Of a stretch of DNA of 64,000 nucleotides, positions 1 to 64,000 are shown piece by piece. Position numbers and translations under genes: made by a program. How positions within the stretch are numbered: the first letter of the stretch is position 1; every line of letters begins with the position of its first letter. The stretch is from assembly GCA_963777495.1 (NCBI GenBank), contig CAVZQM010000004.1, positions 426,715 through 490,714 on the forward strand. The letters are read 5' to 3'. The notes below the pieces were generated by a model. It searched no databases. It was given only the letters and a program-made list of their open reading frames with translations, and was not told the DNA's origin. Origin of the DNA: an uncultured Actinomycetes bacterium (GTDB taxonomy: Bacteria > Actinomycetota > UBA4738 > HRBIN12).

Positions 1-73
1 GCGTCTGGTAGTAGCGGACCGTGTCGACCGACACGTCGCAGGCGGCGGCAAGCTGCTCGACCCTGTACCTCAC
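1..73 (-). CDS. MerR-family transcriptional regulator, N-terminal HTH fragment (gene runs off the left edge)
   Basis: The reverse complement of 1-73 starts with GTG and reads VRYRVEQLAAACDVSVDTVRYYQT. This is the typical MerR helix-turn-helix opening. Only 24 codons are visible. Confidence 0.5.
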   Translation of the reverse strand, partial: MRYRVEQLAAACDVSVDTVRYYQT

Positions 74-130
74 GACCGTTCACTCTACGAGTGTTCGCTC
101 GCACGGTCCACGCGCCCGGCGACGGCTACG

Positions 131-1372
131 ATGCCTCGCGTGGAGCGTGTCGGCCGCCCCGTCAGCCTGTTGCTCGTGCTGGCGTGCACGTGCGGAACGT
201 TGATCCTCGGCAGCGCCTTGAAGGGACCGTGCGCCACCGGGAACTGGGACGACGGCCGCCAGTACCGCCTGCTCTGCTATTCGGACATCGTGCCGTTGCT
301 CAACACGGAGCAACTCACGGGCAACCGCTTGCCGTACCTCCAGCCGTGCCTGGAGGCAGGAGGGCAATGCGATGAGTACCCCGTCCTCTCGATGTATCTC
401 ATGCGCCTCGCCGCGTGGGTCGGCGGCAGTACGCCGGCCGGATTCTTCACGGCCAACGCGATCCTCCTGTGGGTGTGCGCCGCCGCGATCGCGACGTGCC
501 TGTACGTGCTGGGGGGCAAGGCCTTGTGGTTCGCACTCGCGCCGACCCTGCTGATCTACGGCTTCATGAACTGGGACCTGTTCGCGGTCGCGCTCGCGAC
601 CGGCGCGCTGGTCGCGTTCGCCCGCCGGCGTGACGGGCTCGCGGGTGTGCTACTCGGCCTCGGCGCCGCCGCCAAGTTCTATCCGGCGCTTCTGGTCGTC
701 CCGTTGATCGCCCATCGTTTGCGCGATCGCGAGCCCGACGCCGCGATCCGGATCGGGTGGGCGACCGCGGGAACGTGGCTCCTGACGAACCTGCCGTTCG
801 CCATCGGCTCGCCCTCGAGCTGGTGGACGTTCTTCAGCTTCAACTCGGCGCGACCCGCGGACTGGGACAGCCTCTGGTACATCGGGTGCACGCACGTCGA
901 CATCCAGGCGATCTGCGGACACACGTCGCGGATCAACGTCGCATCGCTGGCGCTGTTCGTCGCGTCGTTCGTGCTGGTCTGGATCGTCAAGCAGCGGCGG
1001 GAACCGGCGTTCGCGCGATGGAGCCTGGCCTTCCCGATGCTCGTGCTCTTCTTGTTGTCCAACAAGGTGTACTCGCCGCAGTACGGACTGTGGTTGTTGC
1101 CGTTCTTCGCGATGGGCGCCGTCAGCCTGCCGACGTTCATCGCGTTCGAGATGGCAGACGTCGCGGTCTTCGTCACCCGCTTCTCGTACTTCGGAGAGCT
1201 CACCGGGGTCGGCGGTCTGCCGTTCGAGACCTTCGAGATCGCCATCGGGGTCAGGACGCTCATCCTGGTGTGGGCGCTGGTCCAGTGGGTGCGCCGTCCC
1301 ACCTCCGAGCTGCCCGAGTTGGAAACGCCTCCTCCGCGTGAGCCGGTCGTTGTGGGCAAGGCGTCCGCGTGA
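131..1372 (+). CDS. Polytopic membrane glycosyltransferase, GT-C fold (DUF2029/GT87-like)
   Basis: Intact 413-aa ORF with many hydrophobic segments. The Cys-rich N-terminal loop (GPCATGNWDDGRQYRLLCYSDIVPL...EYPVLSMY) and the KFYPALLVVPL motif are typical of actinobacterial polyprenol-phosphate-sugar-dependent transferases. The family call is from memory. Confidence 0.6.
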   Translation: MPRVERVGRPVSLLLVLACTCGTLILGSALKGPCATGNWDDGRQYRLLCYSDIVPLLNTEQLTGNRLPYLQPCLEAGGQCDEYPVLSMYLMRLAAWVGGSTPAGFFTANAILLWVCAAAIATCLYVLGGKALWFALAPTLLIYGFMNWDLFAVALATGALVAFARRRDGLAGVLLGLGAAAKFYPALLVVPLIAHRLRDREPDAAIRIGWATAGTWLLTNLPFAIGSPSSWWTFFSFNSARPADWDSLWYIGCTHVDIQAICGHTSRINVASLALFVASFVLVWIVKQRREPAFARWSLAFPMLVLFLLSNKVYSPQYGLWLLPFFAMGAVSLPTFIAFEMADVAVFVTRFSYFGELTGVGGLPFETFEIAIGVRTLILVWALVQWVRRPTSELPELETPPPREPVVVGKASA

Positions 1373-2535
1373 GCAACCGGACGACGGCCGACCCGCGACT
1401 GCGCGATGGCGTGCGGCCGTGCCTCGTCACGTTCCTGGCCGTTCGGATCGGCCTGATCGTCCTGGCGGCGTTGGCGGCGGGATTGATCCCCGCGCGTGAT
1501 GCCGTCAGCGTGCCCGGGTGGACCGCGCCGCCGCTCGGCCACGGGTGGGGCGGCGTCTTCACCGCGTTCGAACGGCAGGACGCGCTGTGGTTCCTCCGGA
1601 TCGCCACGTCGGGCTATGCGGCGGGAGACGGCAGCGCCGCCTTCTTCCCCCTGTACCCCTTGGTCGTCCGTGCCGTGTCGTGGCTCGTCGGGGGCCGCCC
1701 GCTCCTGGCGGCGACCCTCGTCTCCAACCTAGCGTTCTTCGGATCGCTGCTGGTCCTGTTCGACCTCACGGTCCGCGAGTTCTCCGAGGCGGTCGCCCGC
1801 AAGGCCATCGTCTACCTGGCGATCTTCCCAACGGCGTTCTTCTTCTTCGCTCCGTACAGCGAGTCGCTGTTCCTCCTGCTCTCGCTGATCGCGTTCCGCG
1901 AAGCCCGGCGCGACCGGTGGGGCGTCGCCGCGATCGCCGGGGCGATGGCCGCGATGACCCGGAGCCTGGGCGTCGTGCTCGCGCCGGCGCTCTTCGTGAT
2001 GGCCCTCGAGCGACGAGGGGACCGGGCCATCCCGTGGTCGCGGATCGCTGCATCGGCCGCGGTGCTGCTGGGACCGCTCCTGTATCTGGCATGGTGGGGC
2101 GCGGCGCACCAGGACGCCCTGGCGCCGATCCACGCCCAGGAGCGCTGGCAGCGAACGGTCGTCTTCCCGCTCGTCACGCTCTGGGATGCCTTCCGGCTGG
2201 CGGCCGGGCAAGGGGTCGACGATCCCAACTACTGGCTGATCGACTTCCTGGTCGTCGGGGTGGTGGTCGCGGCCGTCGTGCTCGGCTGGAGACGACTCTC
2301 CCCGGCGTACCTCACGTACGCACTCGGGAGCCTCCTGGTCCCGCTCGCCTATCCGTTCCCGCCACGACCCCTGCTCTCGATGCCGCGCTTCGTGGCGGTG
2401 ATCTTCCCCGCGTTCTGGGTGCTCGCCGACGCGTCGGAGCGCGGGAAGGTGCCGCACACGGCCATCGTGGCCACGTTCGCAGGAGGCTTCTGCCTGCTGA
2501 CGGTGCTCTTCACGAACTGGTGGCACATCTTCTGA
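1369..2535 (+). CDS. Membrane mannosyltransferase-like protein (PIG-V/GT76-like, GT-C)
   Basis: Intact 388-aa polytopic ORF. Its start overlaps the upstream stop (GTGA), which indicates translational coupling. It carries the motif FERQDALWFLRIATSGY...FFPLYPL. Confidence 0.55.
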   Translation: MSNRTTADPRLRDGVRPCLVTFLAVRIGLIVLAALAAGLIPARDAVSVPGWTAPPLGHGWGGVFTAFERQDALWFLRIATSGYAAGDGSAAFFPLYPLVVRAVSWLVGGRPLLAATLVSNLAFFGSLLVLFDLTVREFSEAVARKAIVYLAIFPTAFFFFAPYSESLFLLLSLIAFREARRDRWGVAAIAGAMAAMTRSLGVVLAPALFVMALERRGDRAIPWSRIAASAAVLLGPLLYLAWWGAAHQDALAPIHAQERWQRTVVFPLVTLWDAFRLAAGQGVDDPNYWLIDFLVVGVVVAAVVLGWRRLSPAYLTYALGSLLVPLAYPFPPRPLLSMPRFVAVIFPAFWVLADASERGKVPHTAIVATFAGGFCLLTVLFTNWWHIF

Positions 2536-2599
2536 ACGGGCATCCCCGACCGTTTAGGATGGTGCGGACCGCGTCCAAGGCGCGGACGGAGGACGGGGC

Positions 2600-3235
2600 A
2601 TGATCAAGGTAGCCATCGCCGACGACCACTCGTTGGTGCGACAGGGACTCCGCCGGTATCTGGACATGGCGGACGGCATCGAGGTCGTGGGTGAAGCGTC
2701 GGACGGCCGGGAGCTCTTGACGTTGATCGAGGAGCACGATCCCGACATCGCGCTCGTGGACATCCGGATGCCCGAGATGGACGGCCTCGAGGCCGCCCGC
2801 GAGATCCGCGACCGGTTCCCCAAAGTGGGCGTCATCATGCTCACCGCGTACGACGACCGGCAGTTCGTGGTCGAGGCGGTCCGATCGGGAGCGCGCGGAT
2901 ACGTCCTGAAGGCTCGTGACGCCGAGCATCTGATCCAAACGGTGCGCCTGGTCGCGGGGGGCAACATGGTGATCGACCCGCAACTGGTGGTCGCGCTCGC
3001 CGAAGAGCTGTCCACCGCGAAGGAGCGCGATCGCCGGGCGGAGACGCTCACCGCGCGTGAGATCGAGGTGCTACAACTGCTGGCGTTCGGCCACACGAAC
3101 CGCGACATCGCCGAACGGCTCTACATCTCGCCCGACACGGTGAAGACCCATCTCGAGCACATCTTCGAGAAGCTGGGCGCGTCGGATCGCACGGCGGCCG
3201 TGGCCGAGGCGCTTCGACGCCGCCTCATCGAGTAG
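2600..3235 (+). CDS. NarL/LuxR-family response regulator
   Basis: Receiver domain (IADDHSLVRQGL...DIALVDIRMPEMDG) followed by a LuxR HTH (LTAREIEVLQLLAFGHTNRDIAERLYISPDTVKTHLEHIF). Confidence 0.9.
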   Translation: MIKVAIADDHSLVRQGLRRYLDMADGIEVVGEASDGRELLTLIEEHDPDIALVDIRMPEMDGLEAAREIRDRFPKVGVIMLTAYDDRQFVVEAVRSGARGYVLKARDAEHLIQTVRLVAGGNMVIDPQLVVALAEELSTAKERDRRAETLTAREIEVLQLLAFGHTNRDIAERLYISPDTVKTHLEHIFEKLGASDRTAAVAEALRRRLIE

Positions 3236-3305
3236 GCCCTTCCCCACCGCAGGGACCGGAAGCCGCAGCGTGTCGGCCGGTGGGGGTTAGTCCATCCGGC
3301 CACGC

Positions 3306-5483
3306 ATGTCCGACGACTGGGTGATGGAGCGGAAGGGGCCGAACGGGCAAGATGGGATGCGCATGAGCGACGCCCACGTCCCACGACGATCCCGTGTCTT
3401 CGCCGCCGTCCCGCTGCTGGCGGGCGCTGCCGCCGTGGTCGTGTGCGCGCTGATGCCGTCGGGGCGCAACCAGACGCTCATGGCCGAAGCGTCGGTCGTC
3501 GTGCTGAACCTCGTCGCCGCGGCCTCGGTCTTCGGCCCCGGCCGGCCGACGGAGTCGTGGCGTTCCGCCCGCTACTTCGCCGCATTCATGGTCATGCTCG
3601 CGCTCTTGGCGATCGGGTTGCTGGTGCTCGACATCCAGCGTCGGACCCCCGAACCGGGCTCGCTGGATCTGCTGCTCCTGCTGTTCCTGATCCCGGTGCT
3701 GGGCGCAGCGCGGGAGGAGTACCGGTCGCACTTCCCCGGCGACGATCGACGCGAGATCTCGATCGACGCCGCCCTGATCGCCGCGTCGCTCGCCGCGATC
3801 TGCTACGTGATCATCCGGCCGGTCGACGCGGATGCGGCGACGTCCCTGTCGGCCGGGACGTTCGCCGTCGTGTCTGCCACGTTGTTCGCGGCGTTCGGCG
3901 TCCTGGCGCTGTGGGTGCCGTCGGCTGCGCACATCGTGCAGTGGCTCGTCCTCACCGCCGTCTCGGCTGCGACCGTCGTCTTCGGCTGGGAATGGACGCG
4001 CGGCACGTTCGACATCGGATTCCCCGGGATCGTCGTCGTGTTCATGCTCGCCGGGCCGTTGCTGGCCGCGACGATCACCCTGCTCCCGATGCGCACCGAC
4101 CCTCGACGGGACGAGCGCCGCCGGCATCTGGCCCGCCCGATCCTCACGAGCGTGTCCGTGATCTCGGCATGCGCGGCTCTCGCCACCGTGGCCGCGCTCG
4201 ACGACGAGCGCGGGCTGCCGCGGTGGCAATCGGCATCGATCATCGCGTTGCTCGGGGTGGGCGTGGCGGCGCGGATCCTGGCGAACCAGATCCGAAGCAC
4301 CCATGCGCGTGCGCAGGCCGAGCACGCCCTGGGCGACAAGGAACGGGCGCTCAACGAGGCCGACATCGCGCTCGGTCGGGTCCGCGAGACGAACGAGACG
4401 CTTCGCCAGTCCGAGGAACATCTCCGGCTGGTCTTCGAGGCGGCCGTCGACGGGATCGTCGAGCTCGACCACAACGACGTGATCCTGCGGACGAACGACG
4501 CGTTCTGCAGCATGGTGCGCATCGACCGCGACTCGATCGAAGGGCTGCCGTGGACGGCCCTCGCGGCGTCGGTGGGCGGCGCCGACGCATCCTTCGCATC
4601 CCTCCCCACGACCGGGCAGGGCACCATCCAGCGCCCCGAGGGCCAGGCCCTCTACCTGGAGTCGCGCATCTCCGACGTGCCGATGACGCCGCCCAGGCGC
4701 CTCCTGCTGGTCCGTGACGTGACGGCGGGACGGATCGCGGACCAGACGATCCGTTCGCTGTTCAAGTTCCTTCAGGACCGGGACGAGGACCGGACGCGAC
4801 TCCTCCGCCGGACGAACAGCGCGATCGAGGCCGAGCGGAACCGCATCGCCCGCGACCTCCACGACGGCCCGGTGCAGGGCGTGTCGGCCGCGTCGCTCTC
4901 GTTGGAGGCGGCACTCCTGATGATCAAGGCCGGCGACGGCGACCGGGGGATCGAGATCCTCACGAAGATCCGCAAGGAGCTCGCCGAGGAGGCCGACGGC
5001 CTGCGCGCCCTCATGTCCGGATTGCGTCCGCCGCTGCTGGAGGAACGCGGGCTGATCCCGGCCATCCGCGAGACCCTGGCGCGCTTCGGGACCGAGCAAG
5101 GGGTTCGAACCGAGTTCTCGGGCATGGTCAGCAAGGAGATCCCCGACGACCTGGAGACGCTCGCCTACCGCGTGGTGCAGGAGGCCCTATCGAACGCGGC
5201 CAAGCACTCCCAGGCCGCCCACGTGACCGTCTCGGTCGAACTGGACCAGGTCCAGCTCCGGGTCGAGATCGTCGACGACGGGATCGGCTTCGACAACGAG
5301 CGAAGGCGGGAGTTCCTGCAGATGGGGCGCGTCGGACTGGCGTCCATGCGTGAACGCGTGGAGCTCGCGAGCGGAACGTTCGTCGTGCGTTCGACGCAGG
5401 GGCGCGGGACGACGATCGTCGCGACGCTGCCGATCGACATCGCGCCCGCCGGTCGCGAGCTCAGCGTCAACGAAACGACCTGA
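3306..5483 (+). CDS. Membrane sensor histidine kinase (PAS + HisKA_3 + HATPase_c), partner of the NarL-type regulator
   Basis: N-terminal multi-TM region, a PAS-like segment (LRLVFEAAVDGIVELD...), the H-box NRIARDLHDGPVQ, and an ATPase domain (VQEALSNAAKHS...DDGIGF...GLASMRERV). The exact start is uncertain. Confidence 0.85.
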   Translation: MSDDWVMERKGPNGQDGMRMSDAHVPRRSRVFAAVPLLAGAAAVVVCALMPSGRNQTLMAEASVVVLNLVAAASVFGPGRPTESWRSARYFAAFMVMLALLAIGLLVLDIQRRTPEPGSLDLLLLLFLIPVLGAAREEYRSHFPGDDRREISIDAALIAASLAAICYVIIRPVDADAATSLSAGTFAVVSATLFAAFGVLALWVPSAAHIVQWLVLTAVSAATVVFGWEWTRGTFDIGFPGIVVVFMLAGPLLAATITLLPMRTDPRRDERRRHLARPILTSVSVISACAALATVAALDDERGLPRWQSASIIALLGVGVAARILANQIRSTHARAQAEHALGDKERALNEADIALGRVRETNETLRQSEEHLRLVFEAAVDGIVELDHNDVILRTNDAFCSMVRIDRDSIEGLPWTALAASVGGADASFASLPTTGQGTIQRPEGQALYLESRISDVPMTPPRRLLLVRDVTAGRIADQTIRSLFKFLQDRDEDRTRLLRRTNSAIEAERNRIARDLHDGPVQGVSAASLSLEAALLMIKAGDGDRGIEILTKIRKELAEEADGLRALMSGLRPPLLEERGLIPAIRETLARFGTEQGVRTEFSGMVSKEIPDDLETLAYRVVQEALSNAAKHSQAAHVTVSVELDQVQLRVEIVDDGIGFDNERRREFLQMGRVGLASMRERVELASGTFVVRSTQGRGTTIVATLPIDIAPAGRELSVNETT

Positions 5484-7700
5484 ACCGCCCCGTCGGGCCC
5501 GATGCCTCCCTGACCCGTGGGACCGCTCGGACCCGTGCCTCCGGTCGGTCCCGTCGGGCCGGTCCCCGTCGGGCCGGTGGGACCCGTCGGGCCCGTGCCG
5601 GACGGTCCGGTCGGGCCGGTGGGCTCGGCCGACGGTGACTCACTGGGGCTCGGGCTCGGCAGGAACACTTGCGTCTCCGGCCCGATGGTGTAGCCGTCGA
5701 ACGAGGGCACCGGGAACGACTCGACGGGCAGCCCCTGCATCGCGACCGTCATGAAGTCGTGCCAGATGGCGGCGGGGATGGTCCCGCCGTACACGGGCGA
5801 CACGCCCTGCACGCTCTCCATGGGGATCTCGCCCTCCGGGTACCCGACCCACACGCACGTGGCCAGCTGCGGCGTGTACCCGCAGAACCACGCGTCGACG
5901 TACTCCTGCGCGGTCCCCGTCTTGCCGGCCACCGGCCGATCGGACAGGGCCGCGGCGCCGCCCGTTCCGGCGGTCACCACGTCCTGCAACGCGTACGTGA
6001 CCAGGTCGGCGTCGTTCGGATCCAGGACCTGCTGCCCCTTGCGGCTCACGTTGTCGACCACCTTGCCGTTGTGGTTCGTGAGCTGCACGAGCGGGTTCGC
6101 GTAACGGCGCACGCCGTGCGCGGCCAGCGTCGCATACGCGTTCGTCATCTCCAGCGGGTTCACGGCCTCGACGCCGAGCGTGATGGAGCACACCGGCTGC
6201 AGGTCGCTGCGGATGCCCAGCCGGTGCGCCATGTCGACGACCTTCTCCGGCCCGAGCTGCGCGGTCAGCTGCGCGAAGACCGTGTTGACCGAGTGCGCCG
6301 TCGCGGCCTGCAGCGAGAACGTGCCCGCCTCGGAGTCCGAGGCGTTCGACAGCTCCCACGGCGCGCCGTTCGTGTAGCAGGCCGTGTCCGGGATCGTGAT
6401 CGAGGCCGGCCCCGTCCAGTACGCGTTGAGGTCGTAGCCGGCGTCCATGGCCGCGGCGAGAGCGAACGGCTTGAACGACGAACCGGCCTGGCGCCCGCTG
6501 CCGCCGAACGTCTCCGTCTTGAGCCGCAGCCCCGAGACCGCCAGGTTCACCTGCGACTGGCTGAACCCGCGCCCCCCCACCATGGCCAGGATCTCCCCCG
6601 TGCTCGGGTCGATCGCGACCAATGCACCTTCGGGATCCGACGGACTGGGCAGGTGCGCGTTCACCGCCGCCTCCGCGGCGCGCTGCAACCCCAGGTCGAG
6701 CGACGTCGTCACCCGGAACCCGCCGCCGAAGACGGCCTCGCCGCCGTACTTGTTGATCAGGTAGCGCCTGGCGTAGTCCACGAAGTACTCGGAGTTGGCC
6801 GGCGCGTTCACGGCCTCCTTCGCCGGATCCGTCTGCACCTTCAGCTGCTGCAGCTGGCCTGCCTTCGCGCTGTCGAGTCCTTCGTACCGCACCATCTGAT
6901 CGAGCGCGTAGTCGCGACGGACCTTGGCGTCCTCGGGGTGGTCGATCGGGTCGAACCGTCCCGGCGACGTGATGAGGCCCGCGAGCGTGGCCGACTGCTT
7001 GATGCGTCAGGTCGGCGGCGTCGATGCCCCAGTACGTCTGCGCCGCCGCCTGGACCCCGTATGCGCCGTGCCCCAGGTAGATCGTGTTGAGGTAGCGGGC
7101 CAGGATCTGGTCCTTCGACAGCGTCTGCTCGAGCTTGATCGCCAGGAGCGCCTCGCGGATCTTCTCTTTGATCGTGCGAGGCGGGATCACGTATTCGGTC
7201 GTGCCGTCCGGCTGCTCGACGTAGCTGCCCGCGTACACCTGCTTGACGAGCTGCTGCGTGATGGTGGAACCACCCTGGACCGTGTCGCGCTCCACGACGT
7301 CGGTCCACGCGGCCCGCAAGATGCCGACCGGGTCGATCCCGGGGTGCTCGTAGAACCCGTGGTCCTCGACGGCGACGACCGCGTCGCGGAGATGCTCGGG
7401 CATCTGGTCGAACGGGATGATCGTGCGGTCGACCGCCCCGTGGATCGACGCCAGGAGGGAGCCGTTGCGGTCGTACATGAACGTCGACTGGATCGGCGGC
7501 AGCGCCCTCGGCAGCTCGATCTGCGAGTACGCGTACACCAAGCCGCCGCCGATCGCGAGCACGACGACGACGGGGACGGCGATGAACACCCACCAGAACC
7601 GTCGGAAGAAGCCCTTCTTCGGCTTCCCCTTCTTGTCGCGGGTGTGCCTGGGGGTATAGGAACGACCCCGGGCGGCTCGAGGGGTGGTGTCGGTCGACAC
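5467..7700 (-). pseudogene. ponA: Class A penicillin-binding protein (transglycosylase + transpeptidase), frameshifted as sequenced
   Basis: The GT51 domain (EDHGFYEHPGIDPVGILRA...GGSTITQQLVKQ...RYLNTIYLGHGAYGV) is in one frame. The TP domain (ALVAIDPSTGEILAMVGG...SSFKPF...KTGTAQEY) is in another frame. The junction lies at about 7003 inside the motif DLTL-KQSATLAGLI, and removing one base restores it. The GTG start at 7700 precedes a basic-rich N-terminus and a TM segment. The 3' end is ambiguous (see findings). Confidence 0.85.
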
Positions 7701-7770
7701 TGGGATCGATTCTACCGAGGGCAGGCGGATACCCTGCGCACGCTCGTGTGATGTTCCGGTGTCGGGGCGC

Positions 7771-8172
7771 TCAGATGGCGGCCGTACGCCGGGCGGTGAA
7801 CGCCTCTTTGAGGTGGTTCCACTGGCAGTTGCGACACACCTCGACGATGTAGCAGCACGAGCCGGGGTGGGCCGCCGCCATGCGGAGGCCCGTCTGGATC
7901 GACCACACCCGCCCGCTGTCGGCCTTGAGACCGTCGCCGTAGACGTAGGCCAGCAGGACGAGCTTCTCCTTGGCACAGACGGGACAGTCGTTGTTCGTCG
8001 GCTCCCCGACGTGGCGGGCCGCCCGCATGAGCTCGGGGTGGGCGTCGCAGACATCGGTGAGACCCAGCACGCCGATCCGCGCGTCCCGCAGGAGCGCGCG
8101 CTTGGCCAGCGTGTAGTCGATCACGCCCAACTCGGCGCGACGTCCCCCCAGCGGCGTCCGCTTGGCTGCCAT
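7771..8172 (-). CDS. DUF5318-family protein (conserved partner of ponA in actinobacteria)
   Basis: Sequence MAAKRTPLGGRRAELGVIDYTLAKRALL...CPVCAKEKLVLLAYVYGD...CRNCQWNH. It lies immediately upstream of the PBP gene on the same strand, which is the same synteny I recall from mycobacteria. Confidence 0.7.
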   Translation of the reverse strand: MAAKRTPLGGRRAELGVIDYTLAKRALLRDARIGVLGLTDVCDAHPELMRAARHVGEPTNNDCPVCAKEKLVLLAYVYGDGLKADSGRVWSIQTGLRMAAAHPGSCCYIVEVCRNCQWNHLKEAFTARRTAAI

Positions 8173-8266
8173 GGAGAGCAAGTCTACCCCCCTGCCCCGA
8201 CGTGATGGACCTGCCGTCGGACGTACGTCCATCGGATACTGGGGTCACCCAACCGGAGGAGTGAGG

Positions 8267-8965
8267 ATGCCCGAGATCACCGTGCTGCACAGCGCCGACC
8301 GTTCGAGCTGGAGGGCGCTCGAGGACCCGCCCGGTGGCATCCCGTCGTCGGGTCGCGAGCTCGACGCGTTCTCCTCGGGCGACGGCGCCTTCGAATGCGG
8401 ATTCTGGGAACGCCAGCCCGACACCTGGTCGTTCGAGCGGCCGTACGACGAGGTCGCGTACATCTTGGAAGGGGCGGCGGAGGTCGAGACGGAGGACGGT
8501 CGCGTGTTGCGGCTGGGACCCGGCGACACGTTCGTCACGCCGAGAGGGTCGAAGGGCACCTGGCGCATCCAGGAGACCATCGCGAAGTTCTTCACCATCT
8601 ATTCGGGAGGCGCGATCGGCGACACCGGGATACGTGTGATCGGCGCGAACGACCCCGTCGACTGGGTGACCTTGGACAACGCGCCCGGAGACGACGACCC
8701 ACCCGGGCAGGAGTGGTACGCCTGGCGGAACCCCGACGGGAGGTTCTCGACCGGCGTCTGGCGCCGCGACCCCGAGACCGGGACGTTCGACCGCGAGTAC
8801 CACGAGGTCGCGTGCCTCATCGAGGGCGACGTGGAGATCGAGGCCGAGGATGGGCAGGTGCTGCGGGTCGGAGCGGGCGACGTCCTAGTCACGCCGAAGG
8901 GATCGAAAGGCCTGTGGCGCGCGCTGACGCCGGTGAGCAAGTTCTGGGCGGTGTATCACGGGTAA
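8267..8965 (+). CDS. Tandem cupin protein (2x DUF861/cupin_3-like)
   Basis: Two copies of the pattern G.W...P.....F.R.Y.EV..ilEG...iE.eDG.vlR.G.GD..VTP.GSKG.W. A GGAGG ribosome-binding site precedes the ATG at 8267. Confidence 0.75.
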   Translation: MPEITVLHSADRSSWRALEDPPGGIPSSGRELDAFSSGDGAFECGFWERQPDTWSFERPYDEVAYILEGAAEVETEDGRVLRLGPGDTFVTPRGSKGTWRIQETIAKFFTIYSGGAIGDTGIRVIGANDPVDWVTLDNAPGDDDPPGQEWYAWRNPDGRFSTGVWRRDPETGTFDREYHEVACLIEGDVEIEAEDGQVLRVGAGDVLVTPKGSKGLWRALTPVSKFWAVYHG

Positions 8966-9011
8966 CCCGTACGGCTCACTGGAGCCCGAGCCTGCAGGTG
9001 GCCAGCCGCTC

Positions 9012-9425
9012 GTGGTCGAGGCGGGCGCGGCCACGGTGTTGCTCCGCGGCCTCCGCAAGCGGTGCCCCCGCTGCAGCGAGCGACGCATCTTCCGTTCGTG
9101 GCTCCATCTGCTCGAACGGTGCCCTCGATGCGCACTCCATTTCGAGCGCGAGCAGGGCGGGTTCCTGGGCGCGATGACGCTCAACTTCCTGGCGTCGACC
9201 CTGGTGTGGGTGGCGATGCTGGTGGTCGTCCTGGCGCTGACCGTGCCCGACGTGCCGGTGGTGCCGTTGCTGATCGCGAGCGTCGTCGTGCTGGTCGTGA
9301 TGCCACTGTGGTTCTACCCGCGCTCGAAATCGCTCTGGGCGGCGATCGAGTTCCTGGTGGCGCGGAGCGACCCGGACTATCGAACGCCGATACGACGCGA
9401 CCCTCGAGCGGAAGACCTGGAGTGA
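9012..9425 (+). CDS. DUF983-like small membrane protein with zinc-ribbon
   Basis: A CPRCSERRIF...CPRCALHFERE motif followed by two TM helices. Confidence 0.65.
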   Translation: MVEAGAATVLLRGLRKRCPRCSERRIFRSWLHLLERCPRCALHFEREQGGFLGAMTLNFLASTLVWVAMLVVVLALTVPDVPVVPLLIASVVVLVVMPLWFYPRSKSLWAAIEFLVARSDPDYRTPIRRDPRAEDLE

Positions 9426-9432
9426 CGGGACG

Positions 9433-12140: not shown

Positions 12141-12209
12141 CCCACTGGGTTGTCGGCCGGCAACGGCCCGGACTTCAGTCCGATGGACAGAACGGGTGGT
12201 CACAACGGG

Positions 12210-13184: not shown

Positions 13185-13197
13185 CGTTCACCTCCTC

Positions 13198-49134: not shown

Positions 49135-49149
49135 ACGCAAGCGACGGCC

Positions 49150-50189: not shown

Positions 50190-50191
50190 CC

Positions 50192-51246: not shown

Positions 51247-52070
51247 CGCTCCGCGACGCCCACGAGCTGCGCGCCGAGAACCTCACCCTCGGGTACGACG
51301 TCGAGCGACGTCATCGCTCGACCTCGACGTCGACATCCCGACGCGGAAGATCACGATCGATCGTCGGCGCGAACGCCAGTGGGAAGTCCACGCTGCTGCG
51401 CGGTCTCGCGCGCCTGTTCGCCCCGCGTGGTGGCCAGGTCATCCTGGACGGCCGGGCCGTGCACGACATGAAGACCGTCGACGTCGCCAAGGTGCTCGGC
51501 CTGTTGCCGCAGGAGCCGGTGGCCCCGGACGGCATCACGGTCGGCGACCTGGTCGGCCGCGGTCGCTATCCCCACCAAGGGTGGTTCCGCCGCTGGAGCA
51601 GCAAGGACGACCAGGTTGTGGCGACCGCGCTCGCGGCGACAGGAACCGCCGACCTGGTCGATCGTCGGGTGGCCGAGCTGTCGGGTGGACAGCGCCAGCG
51701 GGTGTGGGTCGCCATGGCGCTCGCCCAGGACACCGACCTCCTGCTGCTCGACGAGCCCACGACGCACCTGGACATCAGCCACCAGGTGGACCTGCTCGAC
51801 CTCCTGACCGATCTCAATCGCACGTCCGGCACCACGATCGTCGTCGTGCTGCACGACCTGAACCTCGCCTGTCGTTACGCGGATCACCTGATCGCGATGA
51901 AGGACGGCGCGATCGTCGCGGAGGGTTCGCCGTGCGACGTGATCGACGCCGGGCTAGTCAAACAGGTCTACGGGATGGCGTGCGAGGTCGTGCCCGACCC
52001 GGTCAGCGGCACCCCGATGATCATCCCTCGCGGGCGTCATCACGCCGCCGACCAGCGCAACTCGTTATAG
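51243..52070 (+). pseudogene. ABC transporter ATP-binding protein (FepC-like); ORF uninterrupted but about 17 codons are out of frame between two compensating indels
   Basis: Walker A GANASGKST, the signature LSGGQRQRV, and Walker B LLLLDEPT. The residues between LGYDVE and SIVGAN read RRHRSTSTSTSRRGRSR in frame, but TSSLDLDVDIPTRKIT (the expected family sequence) in the +2 frame. Confidence 0.85.
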
Positions 52071-52342
52071 GCCGAACGGCAAACGGATTAAGACCTTCGT
52101 CGGGTTGTTCCGTGCGGCCGGGGGATGGAACACTGCGCATCCCAACTACGACGAATTGTGCATGTGCGGGCTCCCCCGCTCCTGCCCCAGGAGGTCAACC
52201 GGACATGAGTCTTGCTCGTTCCCCCCGGCCTGTTTACCGTGCAACGAACCGACCGAGGGGATCCCGTTCCCTCCTCATCGCCATCGCGACCCTCGCGGTC
52301 GTCGCGTCGATGCTTCCGTTGGCCCCCGCCGCCTTCGCGGCC

Positions 52343-55290: not shown

Positions 55291-58200
55291 CCGCTCGACG
55301 TGGGCGAGGCGCCGGACGCGCCCGTCAACGTGGCTCCGACCGACAACGCGACCAACGTCACGCTCCCGCCGACGCTCGACGTCACCGTGTCCGACCCCGA
55401 CAGTGCGACCGTCGACGTCACCTTCTTCGGCCGTCCCGTGTGGCGGTGCCGGCACCGGCGAGGACTTCACGATCATGACGATCCCCGACACGCAGTTCTA
55501 TTCGGAGAACGTCCGTCAACTCGCGAACGCGATCTACACGGCCCAGATGAACTGGATCGTGAGCTCGAAGGCCTCGCTGAACACGGTGTTCGCCACGCAC
55601 CTCGGCGACATACGAGAACTACGACACGGTCGAGGCCGAGTGGCAGCGGGCCACCGTGCAACCAGGCCATCCTCGACACGAACGGGGTGCGGAACGGCGT
55701 GCAACACCGGGCAACCACGACATCGCCAACGCGGCGAACGTCAGCGTCGCGCACTTCTACGACCAGTACTTCCCGCCGTCCCGCTACGAGGGGTTCCCCT
55801 GGTACGGCGGCTACCTCGGCGACCCGACCGACGGCGTCGCCGACGGCGCCGTGAACCGCCTGAACAAGGACAACTACGCGCTGTTCTCCGCCGGCGGGAT
55901 GGACTTCCTGGTCATCCAGCCTCGAGCACGACATGCCCGTCGTACGCGACGACGTGGGCGCAGAACCTGATCGACGCGTTCCCGAACCGGCACGTCATCA
56001 TCAGCACGCACGCGTTCGTCAACGCAGACCGGCGCACCGGCCGACCTCGCCCGTCAACCGTGCCGACGGCAGTCCGCCGAGGCCGTGTGGCAGCAACCTG
56101 ATCAGGCCGAACTGCGAGGTCTTCATGATCGTGAACGGCCACTACCACGGGCGAGGGCCGGCGCGACCGACACTGAACAGCTGCGGCGAGCCGGTCTTCC
56201 AGCTCAACTCCGACTACCAGGACCTCGCCGAACGGCGGGAACGGCTACCTCCGCTACTACACGTTCAAGCCGTCCCTCGACCGGATCGACGCGTTCACGT
56301 ACTCGCCGACCGCTCAACTCGTTCGACACGTCCCAGACTGACGCCGACAGACCAGTTCACGCTTGACCTGGGAGATGGACGGCGCCGAGCCAGTTCACGC
56401 AGATCGGGACCGTGCAGGACGTCGCCTCGGGCGCGCACGCCACGATCCAGTGGAACGGCCTGAACGCGAACACCGAGTACGAGTGGTACGCGGTCGCGAG
56501 CGACGGCTCGCAGTCGACGGACGGACCCACCTCCAGCTTCACGACCGAGACCCCGCCGCCCACGCCGCCGGTCGTCGACTCCGTGACGATCAACCAGGCG
56601 ACCCCGCGCACGAACGACACCCTGTCGGTCACCGTGCAGAGCCACGACGTCAACAACGACCCGATCACGCACCAGTACCAGTGGATCCGCAACGGCAGCG
56701 ACATCGCCGGGCAGACCGGGCCGACGCTGAACCTGGCCACGGCCGGCAACGGCAACAAGGGCGACACGATCGCGGTGCGGGTGACCGCGAACGACGGCAC
56801 GGCCAACAGCGCGCCGGTGACGTCATCGGCGGTGACGATCCTGAACACCGTGCCGACGGCGACCGTCGGACTCAGCCCGACGCACGCCGCAGGCCGACCC
56901 AGACGGTCACGGCCACGGCAACGCGGGCGGACGTCGACGGCGACACCGTGACGCTCACCTACGTGTGGAAGCTCAACGGCGCCACCGTCAAGACGACGGC
57001 GGCATCCTCGAGCCTGACCGACACCCTCGATCTCTCGACCACGAGCGCCGCCAACGGCGACGTCCTGAGCGTCGAGGTCACGCCGAACGACGGCACGGCC
57101 AACGGCACGATGGTGTCCGCCACGGCCACCGTCGACATCCCGATGGTCTCGCCCATCCCCGACAACACGTTCGAGGTGGGCGGCGAACCAGGGTGAACGC
57201 GTTGCTCCGCGTCGGCAACACCATCTACATCGGCGGCGACTTCACGCAGTTGCTCGGCCCCAACGGAGAGATCGTGAAGCGGCAGTACCTCGCCGCGGTC
57301 GACGCGACCACCGGCCAGCCGTTGCCGTGGAATCCGGGCGCCGACGGGATCGTGCATTCCCTGGCCGCTTCTCCGGACGGCACCACGATCTACGCCGCCG
57401 GACAGTTCCGGCACGTCGGCGGTCTCGTCCGCACCAGGATCGCGGCGATCGACGCCACCACGGGCGCGGTGCGCGCGTGGACCCCAACGGTCGGCGCCAT
57501 CGGCCGTGCGATCGTGACGATCGGGAATCGCGTCTACGTCGGGGGCATCTTCACGACGCGTGGCGCGGCCAAGGTGGACCGACGACCACCCGCAACCGCC
57601 TGGCAGCGTTCGACGCCACGACCGGCGCCCTCACGACATGGAACCCGAACGTCAACCAGCAGCCGCGAGACATGCTGGTCACGCCGGACGGCCGCATCAT
57701 CGTCGTCGGGAGGCTTCACGACGGTCGGCGGCTCTCCGAGCAACTACATCGCGTCGCTCGACGCCACCACGGGTGCGCTGCTGCCGTGGAACGATCACCC
57801 GGTCGACCAGGTCCAGGGGATCGCCCAGGGTCCCGGGCAGATCTTCATCGGGAACGGCACCGGAGCTCCGCCGGGCAACCAGGTCGTGGCGTACGACATC
57901 AACACCGGCACCCAGCAGTGGCTCGCGCAGGGCGACGGTGACGTCCAGGACGTGACGTACCTGGACGGCGTCGTCTACGCCGGCGGCCACTTCGACACGA
58001 TGTCGGGCCAACCTGTCGGTCAGGCTCGCCGCCTTCAACGCGGCCACCGGAGCGCTCCGCGATTGGGGCGCCACCGTCGATGGGTCCATCGCCGTCGTCA
58101 CGATGATCGCGGGCGGAGGCAAGCTCTACGTCGGCGGCGGCTTCACGGAGGTGACCGGCGTCGACCGACAGCGACTACGCCGTCTTCAGCGGCGCGCCCG

Positions 58201-59356
58201 CGCCGAACACGCCTCCGGTCGTCGACTCGGTCGTGATCGACCAGACGTCGCCGGGAACGAACGAGACGCTGACGGCGACCGTGACCGCGCACGACGCGGA
58301 CGCGAACCCGCTCACGTACGCGTACCAGTGGACCCGGAACGGCACCGACATCGCCGGGGCCACCGGCCCGTCGCTGAACCTGGCGACGGCGGGTAACGGC
58401 GACAAGGGCGACCTGATCCGGCTGCGCGTGACCGCCAACGACGGCACCGCGACCTCGCCGGCCGGTGACGTCTGCCCCGGTGACGGTGGCGAACACCGTC
58501 CCGACGGCCACCGTCTCGCTGAGCACGCAGTCGCCCGGCACGAACACGACGCTGACGGCCACCGCGACCAGGGCGGACGCGGATGCCGGCGACACGGTCA
58601 CGCTCACGTACCTCTGGACCGTGAACGGCACGCCCCGTCGGACGACGACCACGACGAGCCTGACCGACACGTTCGACCTGTCGGTCGCCGGCAACGGTGA
58701 CCCCGGTGACACGATCGTCGTCACCGTGACGCCGAACGACGGCACCGCGAACGGGACGGGCGTCTCGGACACGGCGCACGGTGGCGACGGGGGCGACCCC
58801 GCCGATCTTCGCCGACGAGTTCACGAACCTGAACAACTGGATCAACGTCACCCGCGTCACGATCGACAACGCGATCGGCTCGCCGGCCGCGCCGTCGGCT
58901 CGGGCCGCGGCGTCGAACCAGACGGCGTTCGCCTACCGGGACCTCGGGACCTCGACGATGACGCCGTGCGTGAGCGCGAACGTCAACGTGGCCTCGGGCA
59001 CCGGCGATCGACCTGTTCCGGCTGCGTTCGGCCGGCAACGGGCCGGTCATCAAGGTCTTCGTCCACGCGAACGGGACGCTGCAGCTCCGCTCGGACTTCG
59101 GCGGCACCACGCGCAACTCCGGCGTCGCAGGTGGGCACCGGCTGGCACTCGCTCGAGCTCTGCGGCACGGTCGGGATCCAACACGACGTGGGACCTGATC
59201 CGCGACGGCGTGGTGATCGTGAACGACTGGGCCGCGAACACCGGCACCGCCGCGGTGACCCGGGTCCAGATCGGTGACACCGCCGCCAAGACGTTCACGG
59301 TGAACTTCGACCACGTCCGCGTGGACCTGGTCCCCGGTGAGGGCGGCGGCCGTGGC

Positions 59357-60520
59357 GACACCCAGGGTCCGACGACCCCGGGCACGCCCACCGGCACCAG
59401 CCCGTCCAACGGCACGATCCAGATCAGCTGGAGCGGCATCCACCGATGCCTCGCCGCCGATCACCTACCGGGTCTACCGCGACGGCAACCCGACCTCGAT
59501 CGGTCGACCACGTCCACGAGCTTCACCGACCCCGGCCTCACGCCGGGCACGAGCCACACCTACACGGTGGATGCCGTCGACTCGCTCAACAACCCGAGCC
59601 TGATGAGCGGGACGTCGGCGTCGATCACGGTGATCGGCCCTCGCCGACACCCAGGGTCCGACGACCCCGGGCACACCGACCGGCTCGAGCCCGTCCACCG
59701 GCATGATCCAGATCCAGTGGACGCGCATCGACCGATGCGTCGCCGCCGATCACCTACCGGATCTACCGCGACGGCAACCCGACCTCGATCGGACAGACGA
59801 CCTCGCTCACGTTCATGGATCCGGGGCTGACCCCCGGCACCAGCCACACCTACACGGTGGATGCGGTCGACTCGCTGAACAACCCGAGCCTGATGAGCGG
59901 CGTCTCGGCCTCGATCACGGTGAGCGCTCCCGCCGACACCCAGGGTCCGACGACCCCGGGGACGCCCGACCGGGAGCAGCCCGTCCAACGGCACGATCCA
60001 GATCAGCTGGACGCGCATCGACCGATGCGTCGCCGCCGATCACGTACCGGGTCTACCGCGACGGCAACCCGACCTCGATCGGTTCAGACCACGTCCACGA
60101 GCGTTCACGGACCCAGGCCTCACGCCGGGGACCAGCCACACGTACACCGTGGATGCGGTCGACTCGTTCAACAACCCGAGCTCGATGAGCGGCGTCTCGG
60201 CGTCGATCACGGTGAGCGGACCGCCGGCCGACACCCAGGGTCCGACGACCCCGGGGACACCGACCGGCGCCAGCCCGTCCGCCGGCATGATCCAGATCCA
60301 GTGGTCGGCGTCGACCGACGCGTCGCCGCCGATCACGTACCGGATCTACCGTGACGGCAACCCGACCTCGATCGGGCAGACGACCTCGCTCACGTTCATG
60401 GATCCGGGCCTCACGCCGGGGACCAGCCACACGTACCGCGTGGACGCGATCGACTCGCTGAACAACCCCAGCCTGATGAGCGGGACGTCGGCGTCGATCC
60501 TGGTGAGCGGTGGGCCGCCC
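59357..60520 (+). repeat. Four tandem FN3-encoding repeats (units start 59357, 59646, 59935, 60230; period 289-295 nt)
   Basis: Each unit starts gacacccagggtccgacgaccccgg and encodes DTQGPTTPGTPTG.SPS.G.IQI.W..STDASPPITYR.YRDGNPTSIG.TTS..F.DPGLTPGTSHTY.VDA.DS.NNPS.MSG.SASI.V. Only the fourth unit is fully in frame. Confidence 0.85.
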
Positions 60521-61123
60521 CGGCGATCTTCTCCGACGACTTCTCGTCGGGGAACTTCTCCGAGTGGGACTCGGTGACCCGTCTCACGATCGATGCGGCC
60601 AACGGTTCGCCGGCGGCGCCGCGCGCACGCGCGAGCGTGACGAACCAGTCGGCGTTCGCCTACCGCGACCTCGGCCTCGTCCACGATGACGGTGTGCTTC
60701 AGCATGAACGTGAACGTGGCGTCGGGCACGGGCCAGTCGACCTGTTCCGCCTGCGGTCCGCCGGCAACGGAGCCCTGATCAAGGTCTTCGTGCACGCCGG
60801 CGGCACGCTGCAGATCCGCTCGGACTTCGCGGGCACCACCCGCAACTCGAACATCCAGGTGGGCGCGGGCTGGCACTCGATCGAGCTCTGCGGCACGGTC
60901 GGGACCACCAGCACGTGGGACCTGATCCGCGACGGCGTGGTGATCGTGAACGACTGGCAGGCCGACACCGGCACCGCCGGCGTGGCCAGGGTCCAGATCG
61001 GCGACAGCGCCGCCAAGACGTTCATCGCCAACTTCGACAACGTGCGACTCGACCAGGTGGCCGGTTGACCGGCCACCTGGTTCCGCGCGGTTCTTCCGCG
61101 ACTTCCCTTTAGGAGGCTTGGAG

Positions 61124-64000
61124 ATGAGCAGCACCACTTCCCCCGCGCGGCGCTCCATGCTCCGCATCCTGCTCGCGGTCGCCGTCATCGCGACGGTCCT
61201 GCCGTTCGGCGCGACGCCCGGCGCTGGCGGCCGGTAACCAAGCCGTGCAGCTCGACGGCGTCAACGACCACGTCGACCTGGGGGCCAGCAGCACCTCGCT
61301 CGGGGCGAACCAGTTCACGCTGGAACTGTGGTTCAAGCGCACGGGCACGGGAGTCATCGCCCAGACCGGCGAGCGCACCGGGCCTCACGCTCGGTCATCC
61401 CGCTGATCACGAAAGGGAAATCGGAAGGCGACGACAATGACGCCCGACATCGCGTACTTCCTGGGGATCAACACGACCCCAACCGGCGGCGGCCTGACGC
61501 GAACGCGCTCGCCGCCGACTTCGAGGACGCCGGCCGGCGGCGCGAACCACGGATTGGCAGCGGCACGACGCCGATCCCGTGAACGTCTGGCACCACGCCG
61601 CCGTGACGTATGACGGATCCAGTGATGCGCTGTACCTGAACGGCCAGCTCGACGGGCACGAGCCCGGCGATCAACGAACCCCCGCAGTCGGACTCGACCC
61701 AGAGGTCGGCATCGGCACGACGTTCCACTCGACAGTTCACCCACGACCAGGCCGTCGGCTTCTTCGCCGGCCAGGTCGACGAGGCGCGGATCTGGAACGT
61801 CGCACGGACGCAGGCGCAGATCCGTCGACGATGAACGCCGAGATCACGTCCGGGGCCGAACCTCACCGGCCGCTGGGGCATGAACGAGGGCACCGGGACC
61901 GACGGTCGCGCGGTTCGGTCGGAGGGATCAACGGAACCCTCGTGAACGGCCCCACGTGGGTTGCGGGCGCCCCGCATCGGTGACCCGGTTCGCCGGTCGG
62001 AGCTCTCGCGGCGACGAACTTCGGCGTCCAGCTCGACGGCGTCGACGATGCCATCCATCTCGGGATCCGGCGGCGGCTCGCCGCTCGGCGCATCCCAGTT
62101 CACCCTCGAGCTCTGGTTCAAGCGGACCGGGACGGGGACGATCGCATCGACGGGAAGCGGGGGGCTACCGCGGCGATCCCGCTGATCACGAAGGGCCGAT
62201 CAGAAGGCGACGGAACGAACGTCGATACGAACTACTTCCTGGGGATCAGCACGATCACCGGTGCGACGGCGGGACGGTCGCCAACCGCTCGCGGCCGACT
62301 TCGAGGACTTCGACATCACCGACAACAACAACCCGGTCTTCGGCACGTCGGTGATCACGTCGAACGTCTGGCACCACGCGCGCGGCGACGTTCAACGGCT
62401 CCCAGCTCTGCCTGTACCTCGACGGCGTGCTCGATGGGTCCTGTCTCGCGACGACGCACCCCACGGTTCGGACTCGATCCAGCAGCCGGCGATCGGGACG
62501 GCGTGGGACGCGCAGACCCCAACGCGGGTCGCCGCCGGTCGCTTCGCCGGCCAGGTCGACGAGGCCCGGATCTGGAGCGTCGCACGCACCCTGGCCCAGA
62601 TCCAGTCGACGATGAACACCCAGATCACCTCGCCCACGGCGGACCTCCTCGGCCGCTGGGCGATGAACGAGGGCACCGGCACGACGGCCGCGAACACGGC
62701 GGGCTCGGCCGGTGTCAACGGAACGCTGCAGAACGGCGCCGCGTGGACGGCCGGCGGATCGGATCGACTCGCCGCCGCCGCCGGGCAGCAGCGCGTGCAG
62801 CTCGACGGCACGGATGACCACGTCGACTTCGGAGCCGGCAGTGCCGCGCTCGGATCGAACCAGTTCACCCTCGAGCTGTGGTTCAAGCGGACCGGGGACG
62901 GGCGTCACCGACGTCGACGGGAGGCTCCGCCCGGGCCTCACCAGCCGTCGATTCCGCTGATCAGCGAAGGGTCGCTCGGAGAGCGCGAGGGCGACCACTC
63001 GATGGCCGACGTTGACTTCTCCTGGGGATCAACACGCGCCGACCGGCGGGCGGCTGACCGGGCGCGAACGCGCTCGCCGCCGACTTCGAGGACGGAGGCG
63101 GGGGCGCCTGGCCGGCGCCGAACCACGGGTCTCGGGCACGCAGCCGTGATCCGCTGAACGACTTGGACCGCACGCCGCCGCGACGTACGACGGCTCCGTG
63201 ATGCGGCTCTACCTCAACGGCGCCGCTCGATGCGAGCAGCGCCGCGATCAGCACGCCCCGCGCTCAGACTCGGTGCACCGCGTCGGCCTCGGCACCGGCC
63301 GTTCAACGCCAGACGGGCCGATCTCGGCGGCCGGCTTCTTCGCCGGCCAGATCGACGAGGCGCGGATCTGGAACGTCGCGCGGACGCAGGCGCAGATCCA
63401 GAGCGCGATGAACACCGAGATCCCGTCGCAGATGTCCGGCCTCCGCGCCCGCTGGGCCTTGAACGAAGCACGGGGACGACCACGGCCAACACGATCGGCT
63501 CCGCCACCGGCGTCAACGGAACGCTCCAGGGCGGGGCGACCTGGGCGGGGCAAGCCCCCGCGGTCGCGCTCGCACCCCGCCGGGGACCTTCGGCGTCCAG
63601 CTTGACGGCACGGACGATGGCATCACCCTCGGGAACGGGGCTCCGCGTCCCCTCTCGGTGCGACCGAGTTCACGCTCGAGCTGTGGTTCAAGCCACCGGC
63701 GGGAACCGGGAGCCACGCTTCGACCGGGACCGGCGGCATCCCAGGCCGTCCCACTCATCACGAAGGGCCGTTCCGAGTCTGACGGCACCACCGCGATACG
63801 AACTACTTCATCGGCATCAACCACGACGACCGGCACACTCGCCGCCGACTTCGAGGACCAGCGGGTCGCCACCAACAACAATCCGGTCTACGGCGTCACG
63901 CCGATCACGCTGAACGTGTGGCACCATGCCGCGGCCACCTTCGACGGCGCCGAGTTCTGTCTCTACCTCGACGGCGAGCTCGACGGGGCGTGCACCCATG
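61124..64000 (+). pseudogene. Second secreted LamG_3-repeat protein (at least 4 modules), heavily frameshifted, continues beyond the right edge
   Basis: AGGAGG ribosome-binding site at 61111 and ATG at 61124. The signal peptide is MSSTTSPARRSMLRILLAVAVIATVLPFGA. LamG modules start near 61240, 62020, 62775 and 63585, with the same FTLELWFKRTG / IPLITKG / NVWHHA / DEARIWNVART motifs. Confidence 0.7.

Follow-up and report, generated by a model that had tools for sequence, protein, structure and literature searches.

Does the soil bacterium behind this stretch of DNA carry many genes broken by single-base frameshifts, or were these genes broken only in the assembled sequence? We examined this for the whole stretch of 64 kb (hereafter, the window), in which segments of cleanly readable genes alternate with segments of interrupted ones.

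Frame breaks and their clustering in blocks

Frame switches were called with our own Viterbi frame decoder, whose codon log-odds were trained on the long intact ORFs of the window, with in-frame stops disallowed and a frameshift penalty of -8. Over the 64-kb window, 84 raw calls of same-strand frame switches were obtained, and 77 were left once gene-boundary and edge artefacts had been removed. The switches called at 28964 and 34783 were rejected as lesions, since they correspond to an ATGA gene overlap and an end-of-gene effect. When the decoder was calibrated with indels spiked into clean blocks, its sensitivity was about 55%, with almost no false calls and a median position error of 2-5 nt; given this sensitivity, lesions in reality number about 1.7 times the count. 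The features of the window are as follows.

1-5600: clean block A, with GT87, a PIG-V-like mannosyltransferase and a histidine kinase; 0 switches (decoder, Pfam)
5640-7637, reverse strand: ponA, class A penicillin-binding protein; 1 extra base at about 7004, in the transglycosylase domain
7641-9430: clean block B; 0 switches (decoder)
9433-12119, reverse strand: sulfatase-1; 4 switches, at about 9925, 10232, 10410 and 11359 (decoder)
12210-16032, reverse strand: Tad pilus cluster (TadE-like, tadC, tadB, tadA); at least 9 switches, at 13351-14987 plus 15722
16310-20997, reverse strand: large adhesin-like gene; only 2 switches, at about 16685 and 19581 (decoder)
21001-34800: clean block C, 13.8 kb, including a 3.5-kb cyclase/AAA/TPR gene; 0 switches (decoder)
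34847-40508: mixed dirty block; 6 switches by the decoder, counted over 34801-40508; lesions (decoder, Pfam, contigs) in the next five features
AhpD-like gene: extra base at 35626 (contigs)
Histidine kinase: switch at about 36870 (decoder)
Response regulator: switch at about 37961 (decoder)
Molybdopterin oxidoreductase: switches at about 39006, 39205 and 39611 (decoder)
Sulfatase-2, 5' end: extra A at 40339 (contigs) and a missing C in the tract 40459-40464 (frame reading of the N-terminus)
40509-48100: clean block D, with the sulfatase-2 body, an M15 peptidase, a HAD hydrolase and tRNA-Sec (47031-47125); 0 switches
48120-51246, forward strand: iron-siderophore ABC substrate-binding protein (SBP) and two FecCD permeases; 13-15 switches, none a stop
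51243-52070, forward strand: ABC ATPase, intact within the dense block; a single ORF with a full ABC_tran match
52271-64000, forward strand: giant repeat-rich surface-protein genes (Ig-like, beta-propeller, FN3-like, Laminin_G_3); at least 40 switches (decoder, Pfam)
59340-60500, forward strand: four FN3-like repeat units of about 290 nt, 89% alike; an extra base in 3 of the 4, in the same alignment column

The frame breaks are truly present in the window sequence and are clustered in blocks. The four clean blocks, with 26 kb of coding sequence, gave 0 switches, and the counts per block were unequal (heterogeneity chi-square 114.7, p = 4e-21), which bears out the block-wise mosaic that had been described from the letters alone. 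Three tiers of lesion density were seen with the decoder: 0, about 0.5 and about 4 per kb. The region 9431-16100 holds 12 switches, and the dense block (48101-64000) holds 56, or 4.0 per kb of coding sequence, at a median spacing of 208 nt that fits an exponential distribution. GC content did not separate clean from dirty blocks. The lesion positions of the sequence-only reading (about 7003, 16664 and 19578, 36868, 39008, 52378-52468 and the C6 tract at 40459-40464) match ours; its last clean segment, placed from 43100, starts at about 40509 instead. It had also counted two lesions in a thioredoxin-like gene, and one of these falls away: the in-frame TGA at the CxxC cysteine is probably a selenocysteine codon, and the tRNA-Sec at 47031-47125 was confirmed.

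Pfam domains and the intact orthologues of relatives run colinearly across the frame switches. In ponA, positions 2-140 of the Transgly profile lie in 7005-7637 and positions 142-177 in 5660-7003, in different frames. In sulfatase-1, pieces of Sulfatase, SGSH_C and Big_13 follow one another in successive frames, the Sulfatase domain being cut at about 11359 (profile positions 1-186 and 206-301), and the Tad cluster has T2SSE and TadE matches. The Oxidored_molyb domain is likewise split into three frame pieces (4-48, 64-132 and 134-169), as is the FecCD domain, found in pieces across frames. For the SBP and permeases, a frameshift-aware protein-to-DNA alignment against the intact orthologues of five relatives gave 4 shifts in the SBP and 6 and 3 in the two permeases, at the sites called by the decoder; orthologues of 339-370 aa from Aeromicrobium and related MAGs are colinear across the frames of the window. 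A TAG at 49536 was rejected as an in-frame stop, as it closely precedes a shift and lies outside the true frame. Relatives found with the ABC ATPase as query, among genome and metagenome contigs, reach at best 75-80% amino-acid identity (75-77% for the ATPase itself) and have only the four-gene ABC cluster in common with the window; they are close enough to place frameshifts and too far for a comparison at the level of bases.

Comparison with contigs of close relatives

For a comparison at single-base resolution, we used Logan short-read contigs of 40-525 nt from more than 10 independent soil and peat metagenome runs, 92-99% identical to the window; these are relatives rather than the source sample, and they cover about a fifth of the lesions. 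When public runs were searched with words sampled from the window, the maximum was 9%, and the runs at 5-9% were relatives; exact look-ups of three intact proteins of the window in the assembly index gave no match. At 17 of the 18 covered coding lesions the contigs do not have the extra base of the window (15722, 35626, 40339, 48452, 49317, 50857, 54864, 55920, 55936, 56226, 58776, 59126, 59176, 59433, 59724, 59964 and 60012), and at the remaining one (53389, in the surface genes) they have one base more. The frame is restored by the contigs in 18 of 18 cases, and the sites so defined coincide with the shift positions given by the decoder or by homology, often to the base. The base at 15722 is missing in contigs from 7 runs, a short-read contig from soil lacks those at 48452, 49317 and 50857, and the eleven from 54864 to 60012 in the surface genes have no counterpart in the relatives. 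There is contig evidence at 38523 in the mixed dirty block as well, and in ponA the alignment of several relatives' contigs ends at 7012-7014.

The clean coding blocks served as a control, where the same contigs give only indels of 3n and all differences of +/-1 are intergenic. In clean block C, the coding indels are at 22626 (+3), 22641-4 (+3), 22914 (+6), 27411 (-3) and 30526 (-3), and the +/-1 differences are confined to intergenic positions (23939, 25057); in clean block D, the sole indel is intergenic (44730/1); in clean block B, the differences at 7996-8062 are spaced in multiples of three. The comparison with relatives, which had been proposed as a check, thus found the lesions to be private to this assembly at all covered coding sites. 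Judged from these relatives, we put the probability that the frame breaks arose as errors in the assembly consensus, and not as mutations of the organism, at about 93%; almost all of them would be spurious extra bases left by metagenome assembly. Indels that shift the frame are a known flaw of assemblies from long reads and of MAGs at low coverage (Sereika et al. 2022, PMC9262707; proovframe preprint, 10.1101/2021.08.23.457338). The window resembles the residual indels described there and in IDEEL-type tests (PMC9262707; proovframe; Kastor, PMC12007338) in that single-base indels fragment otherwise normal genes of a metagenome-derived contig, are missing from accurate short-read data (here, the contigs of relatives) and may hit genes regardless of function.

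Indel spectrum and signs of selection

The alternative left open by the sequence-only reading is real gene decay, of very recent date, in the accessory repertoire of this lineage (pilus, sulfatases, sensor and oxidoreductase, iron uptake, surface proteins). The affected functions are mostly dispensable, many genes carry several frameshifts each, as in the natural decay of reductive bacterial genomes (leaf-nodule Burkholderia, PMC6054270; deletional bias, PMC2817411), and the case for an artefact rests on relatives rather than on source reads. However, none of the 18 checkable lesions is found in natural populations 92-99% identical to the window, and the direction of the indels runs counter to decay. 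As had been noted, insertions outnumber deletions: extra-base events stand to the other type as 61:16 (3.8:1, decoder; p = 2e-7 against 1:1) and, at base-resolved sites, extra to missing bases as 17:1. Bacterial pseudogenes show the opposite bias (PMC6054270, PMC2817411), with 300 insertions and 396 deletions (ratio 0.76) of larger sizes in PMC6054270, a ratio from which 61:16 differs at p = 1.6e-10. The deletion bias, variable indel sizes, nonsense mutations and relaxed selection of natural decay were not seen in the window.

In particular, there were no in-frame stops across the 13-15 shifts of the ABC genes or elsewhere (2.2% of random substitutions would give a stop), and neither large deletions nor IS elements were found, in keeping with the earlier description. 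Codon bias is unaltered, GC3 being 0.92 in the dirty blocks and 0.90 in the clean ones. Substitutions relative to the contigs were 47 synonymous and 16 non-synonymous in dirty blocks (75% synonymous, against a neutral expectation of 26%) and 23 and 15 in clean blocks; the synonymous excess in dirty blocks is significant even if selection acted in the relative's lineage alone (p = 6e-5). These substitution patterns indicate that purifying selection on the dirty-block genes is intact, and more than 77 indels with no matching excess of substitutions would make an unnatural mutation spectrum. Lesions also ignore gene and operon borders, and the limits of the blocks do not follow genes: sulfatase-2 is hit at its 5' end only, and the ATPase within the dense block is intact. 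The confinement to accessory functions, for which pseudogenisation had been left open, is not a sign of selection: ponA, flanked by two clean blocks, has a lesion too; the accessory concentration is better explained if the consensus fails in strain-variable regions. The evidence strongly favours a technical origin, and we consider pseudogenisation very unlikely.

Two further biological readings concern extra bases that are real in the DNA. The first, programmed recoding by frequent +1 frameshifting on the ribosome or by slippage during transcription, or else phase variation through strand slippage in the surface and uptake genes, would suit the many affected surface structures and an organism that does recode UGA as selenocysteine. 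Against this, relatives without the extra base read straight through the same positions, and the sites share no slippery motif and lie in no homopolymer or repeat tract. One shift would moreover be needed per 150-250 nt, and we know of no recoding system near this density; the probability of such recoding is negligible. It is extremely unlikely as well that one soil actinobacterial lineage underwent a recent, regional, insertion-biased burst of non-homopolymer +1 changes; if it did, error-prone repair synthesis over tens of kilobases could be the cause, and pilus, sulfatase, iron-uptake and surface-protein genes would have been inactivated before any decay at the level of substitutions.

The proposal of a long-read consensus error was upheld as to its technical origin (private lesions, insertion bias, lack of nonsense codons, 75% synonymous substitutions), but not as to a homopolymer type. 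Runs of at least 3 lie near 36% of events, against a background of 33%, so that the reported prevalence in short homopolymers is at chance level, and only 3 of the 17 base-resolved insertions extend an adjacent base. At the other 14, the inserted base is unlike both neighbours (expected 49-56%, p = 0.005-0.02). No 4-mer or 5-mer near the events was enriched after multiple-test correction (best 5-mer, p = 0.25), and a cause in methylation or sequence context is thus unsupported. Classic long-read indels affect homopolymer length, are often deletions and are fairly even, unlike the mostly non-homopolymer, block-confined insertions found here.

Possible origin of the extra bases and consequences

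The most likely source of the contig is a metagenome assembly built from noisy long reads, or a hybrid one, in which poorly supported stretches of consensus would have received one base too many per 150-250 nt or so, other stretches being resolved correctly. Such an error could arise with no merging of strains, if stretches covered by few reads, or long-read fills of gaps between short-read contigs in a hybrid assembly, were left unpolished with insertion-dominated raw errors. The lesion spacing in the dense block fits a random Poisson process, the blocks, at 2-16 kb, are about as long as reads or contigs, and the three density tiers could mirror local depth. PacBio continuous reads have about 8% insertions and 3% deletions (proovframe preprint), near the 3.8:1 found here, and bins below 40-fold coverage require short-read polishing (PMC9262707). 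We regard this explanation as quite plausible, at somewhat under even odds. Random insertions, however, are expected to extend the adjacent base about half the time, far from 3 of 17, and it leaves unexplained why the errors fall in the more variable, accessory parts, why one alignment column is hit in three of four repeat units and why certain sites combine natural alleles.

At 15722 and in the shared column of the three FN3-like units, different contigs omit different bases, which defines two natural alleles, and at these four sites the string of the window is the exact shortest common supersequence of the two. For the FN3 column, the contigs have GGACGGCATC or GGAGCGCATC and the window has GGAGCGGCATC or GGACGCGCATC, both of which are shortest common supersequences of GGACGGCATC and GGAGCGCATC. 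Dirty blocks could hence represent collapsed reads of at least two co-occurring strain variants or near-identical repeat units, to which, within the artefact reading, we give about even odds. At variant sites, the consensus would emit a supersequence of both alleles (CG and GC giving CGC or GCG; TC and GT giving GTC), and from the 17 sites we infer such a tandem writing of both alleles. Merged variants would explain why insertions prevail, why extensions of homopolymers are avoided and why the lesions gather in accessory genes that vary among strains. Strain-oblivious long-read assemblers reportedly collapse co-occurring strains, as the Strainy preprint is said to describe. Passages of the Strainberry paper (PMC8302730) report that Flye collapsed strains 98.65% alike to one consensus, and the window resembles such collapse in that lesions concentrate in variable regions and four sites combine two natural alleles; the passages returned by a keyword search of that paper describe, by contrast, collapsed SNVs and lower identity, not tandem alleles causing +1 frameshifts.

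Some observations fit variant merging less well, namely the 3 run extensions among the 17 sites, position 55920, where the natural alleles are C and A and the window has CC, and the test for synonymous alleles, in which the alternative allele implied by the doublet was synonymous at 7 of 11 sites, no different from chance and thus non-discriminating. On balance, the errors look more like merged variants than like a plain lack of polishing, and low local read depth, failed polishing or gap-filling may act together with the merging of variants.

In summary, the frame breaks are very probably no feature of the organism, and their value lies mainly in quality control. If the merged-variant signature holds more widely, patches of extra bases in public MAGs from long reads would flag regions that vary among strains and would indicate a correctable failure mode of consensus tools. 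In gene calls, pseudogene counts, completeness estimates and findings of broken genes for this genome, +/-1 breaks should be treated as assembly errors, and this applies equally to earlier findings in the window and its neighbours. For proteins encoded in the dirty blocks, translation should be continued across the breaks, and in the living soil bacterium the seemingly broken genes are very probably whole.

Frame breaks along the window

The window has a G+C content of 70%, at which the reading frame can be inferred from the GC of third codon positions, and a simple frame plot showed long stretches of stable frame interleaved with stretches of fast frame change. The genes are of actinobacterial type (by Pfam: GT87, a HisKA_3 kinase, a Tad pilus, sulfatases, an iron-siderophore ABC transporter and giant repeat proteins). 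Frame switches were mapped with a Viterbi decoder using codon log-odds trained on long intact ORFs, in which in-frame stops were barred and each skip of 1-2 bases carried a penalty. Once one ATGA gene overlap, one end-of-gene effect and the edge calls were set aside, 77 same-strand switches remained, with extreme heterogeneity among blocks (chi-square 114.7, p = 4e-21) and block borders that disregard the borders of genes.

Frame switches called by the decoder
1-5600, 7641-9430, 21001-34800 and 40509-48100 (26 kb of coding sequence): 0 switches
ponA: 1 switch
9431-16100: 12 switches
adhesin gene: 2 switches
34801-40508: 6 switches
48101-64000: 56 switches (4 per kb), a median of 208 nt apart; five of the lesions lie within 48.3-49.4 kb

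When indels were spiked into the clean blocks, the sensitivity of the decoder was about 55% at this indel density, with almost no false calls and a placement error of 2-5 nt; the real number of lesions is probably 120-140. Pfam domains carry over from one frame to the next across the switches, as in the Sulfatase profile (positions 1-186 then 206-301, in successive frames), the Oxidored_molyb profile (4-48, 64-132 and 134-169, over three frames) and the ponA transglycosylase profile (2-140 then 142-177, with the break at 7004). For the substrate-binding protein and the two FecCD permeases, intact orthologues of 339-370 residues from Aeromicrobium and related MAGs gave colinear alignments that cross four, six and three frame changes; these changes coincide with the decoder positions, and no in-frame stop was found on the alignment path. 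Therefore, the block-wise pattern of frame breaks described by the sequence-only reading is confirmed, with small corrections.

Further features of the affected and clean blocks
9433-12119 (-) and 40296-43103 (+): sulfatase paralogues of common architecture (Sulfatase + SGSH_C + Big_13/Y_Y_Y), one with many errors, the other with errors at the 5' end only
48120-52070: four-gene iron-siderophore ABC cluster, found in synteny in Aeromicrobium and in several MAGs of uncultured Actinomycetota (amino-acid identity 55-77%); its flanking genes are not common to the syntenic relatives (loci L001-L022)
34847-35455 (-): thioredoxin-fold lipoprotein gene, open in a single frame provided that the TGA at 35147-35149 encodes selenocysteine (…FWAPW-U-TIC…); further downstream, the garbled SSGSHKRCLKTARSGSRF may conceal two indels that compensate each other
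47031-47125 (+): tRNA-Sec gene, anticodon TCA, in a clean block; the sole tRNA in the window (ARAGORN)
30701-33864 and 43484-44698 (+): a pair of paralogues, each about 400 aa long and with Peptidase_M15_4 at the C-terminus; each lies in a clean block

Comparison with natural populations

Reads of the source sample were not found among public runs, the best of which contained at most 9% of the sampled words, and three intact window proteins had no entry in the assembly index. The comparison was made with short-read contigs of relatives, present in many metagenomes of soil and peat, that match parts of the window at 92-99% identity. These contigs span 18 coding lesions, and at 17 of them a contig lacks exactly one window base.

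Single-base differences between the window and the contigs
Extra bases absent from contigs: 15722, 35626, 40339, 48452, 49317, 50857, 54864, 55920, 55936, 56226, 58776, 59126, 59176, 59433, 59724, 59964, 60012
Contig one base longer than the window: 53389

The lesions located in this way match those placed by the decoder or by homology, to within one base at 35626, 48452, 49317, 50857, 54864, 55920, 58776 and 59126. As a control, every coding indel that the same runs gave in clean blocks was 3 or 6 bases long; the +/-1 differences in these blocks were all intergenic. The Q/N/D/T-rich secreted repeat protein at 22389-23888 (-), in a clean block, differs from relatives' contigs in this way, by 3 or 6 nt with the frame kept (22626, 22641-4, 22914), which is natural repeat-length variation. 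In the dirty blocks, single-base differences also fall in probable non-coding parts (16150, 38523 and 40339, the last also among the 17), as expected for errors blind to coding. Programmed recoding, as an account of these breaks, has negligible probability.

Events with an extra base outnumber those of the other type by 61:16, whereas natural bacterial pseudogenes, in a curated collection, have 300 insertions and 396 deletions, the deletions being much larger (PMC6054270; p = 1.6e-10 for the difference in ratio). No nonsense codons were found, although a stop would result from 2.2% of random substitutions in these codons, and dirty coding segments have a GC3 of 0.92, clean ones 0.90. Among substitutions between window and contigs, the synonymous share is 75% in dirty blocks (47:16) and 61% in clean ones, against a neutral expectation of 26%. 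The genes have therefore been kept by purifying selection until essentially the present day, and more than 77 frame-breaking insertions with no other decay are not a natural history. Genuine pseudogenisation is very improbable. In summary, the frame breaks are real in the deposited sequence, yet they are no biological feature; we put the probability of a technical origin, which the sequence-only reading had preferred, at about 0.93.

Merged variants or low depth as possible causes

The placing of many indels in homopolymers, also proposed from the sequence, did not hold: runs of at least 3 bases are no commoner near events (36%) than elsewhere (33%), and at 14 of the 17 base-resolved insertions the inserted base is unlike either neighbour (49-56% would be expected of random insertion; p = 0.005-0.02). 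No k-mer was enriched near events.

Four FN3-like units, 89% alike and each about 290 nt long, lie in tandem at 59340-60500 (+), and in three of the four an extra base occupies one and the same column of the alignment. Natural populations are polymorphic there (GAC GGC vs GAG CGC), contigs reading GGACGGCATC or GGAGCGCATC; in the window, unit 1 reads GGAGCGGCATC and units 2 and 3 read GGACGCGCATC, and these two strings are the shortest common supersequences that the alleles allow. At 15722 the natural alleles are TC and GT, and the window reads GTC. A graph-based consensus would write such supersequence strings if its path ran through nodes from two haplotypes, or two repeat copies, that had been collapsed. 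We propose that this merging could account for the insertion bias and for the concentration of lesions in strain-variable accessory genes. However, the idea is not proven: plain run extensions at three sites are at odds with it, the polymorphic site 55920 does not fit, and a test for synonymous alternative alleles did not discriminate either way.

A live alternative, alone or as a co-factor, is that depth was very low in places, or that gap fill was left uncorrected, and that the raw errors were dominated by insertions, as reported for PacBio continuous reads (proovframe preprint). Given a technical origin, we consider merged variants somewhat likelier than low depth alone. Published reports support the general picture: frameshifting indels occur in long-read assemblies and low-coverage MAGs (PMC9262707), and Flye collapses strains that are 98.65% identical into a single consensus (PMC8302730). 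In practice, the frame breaks are a warning that bears on every other analysis of this genome.
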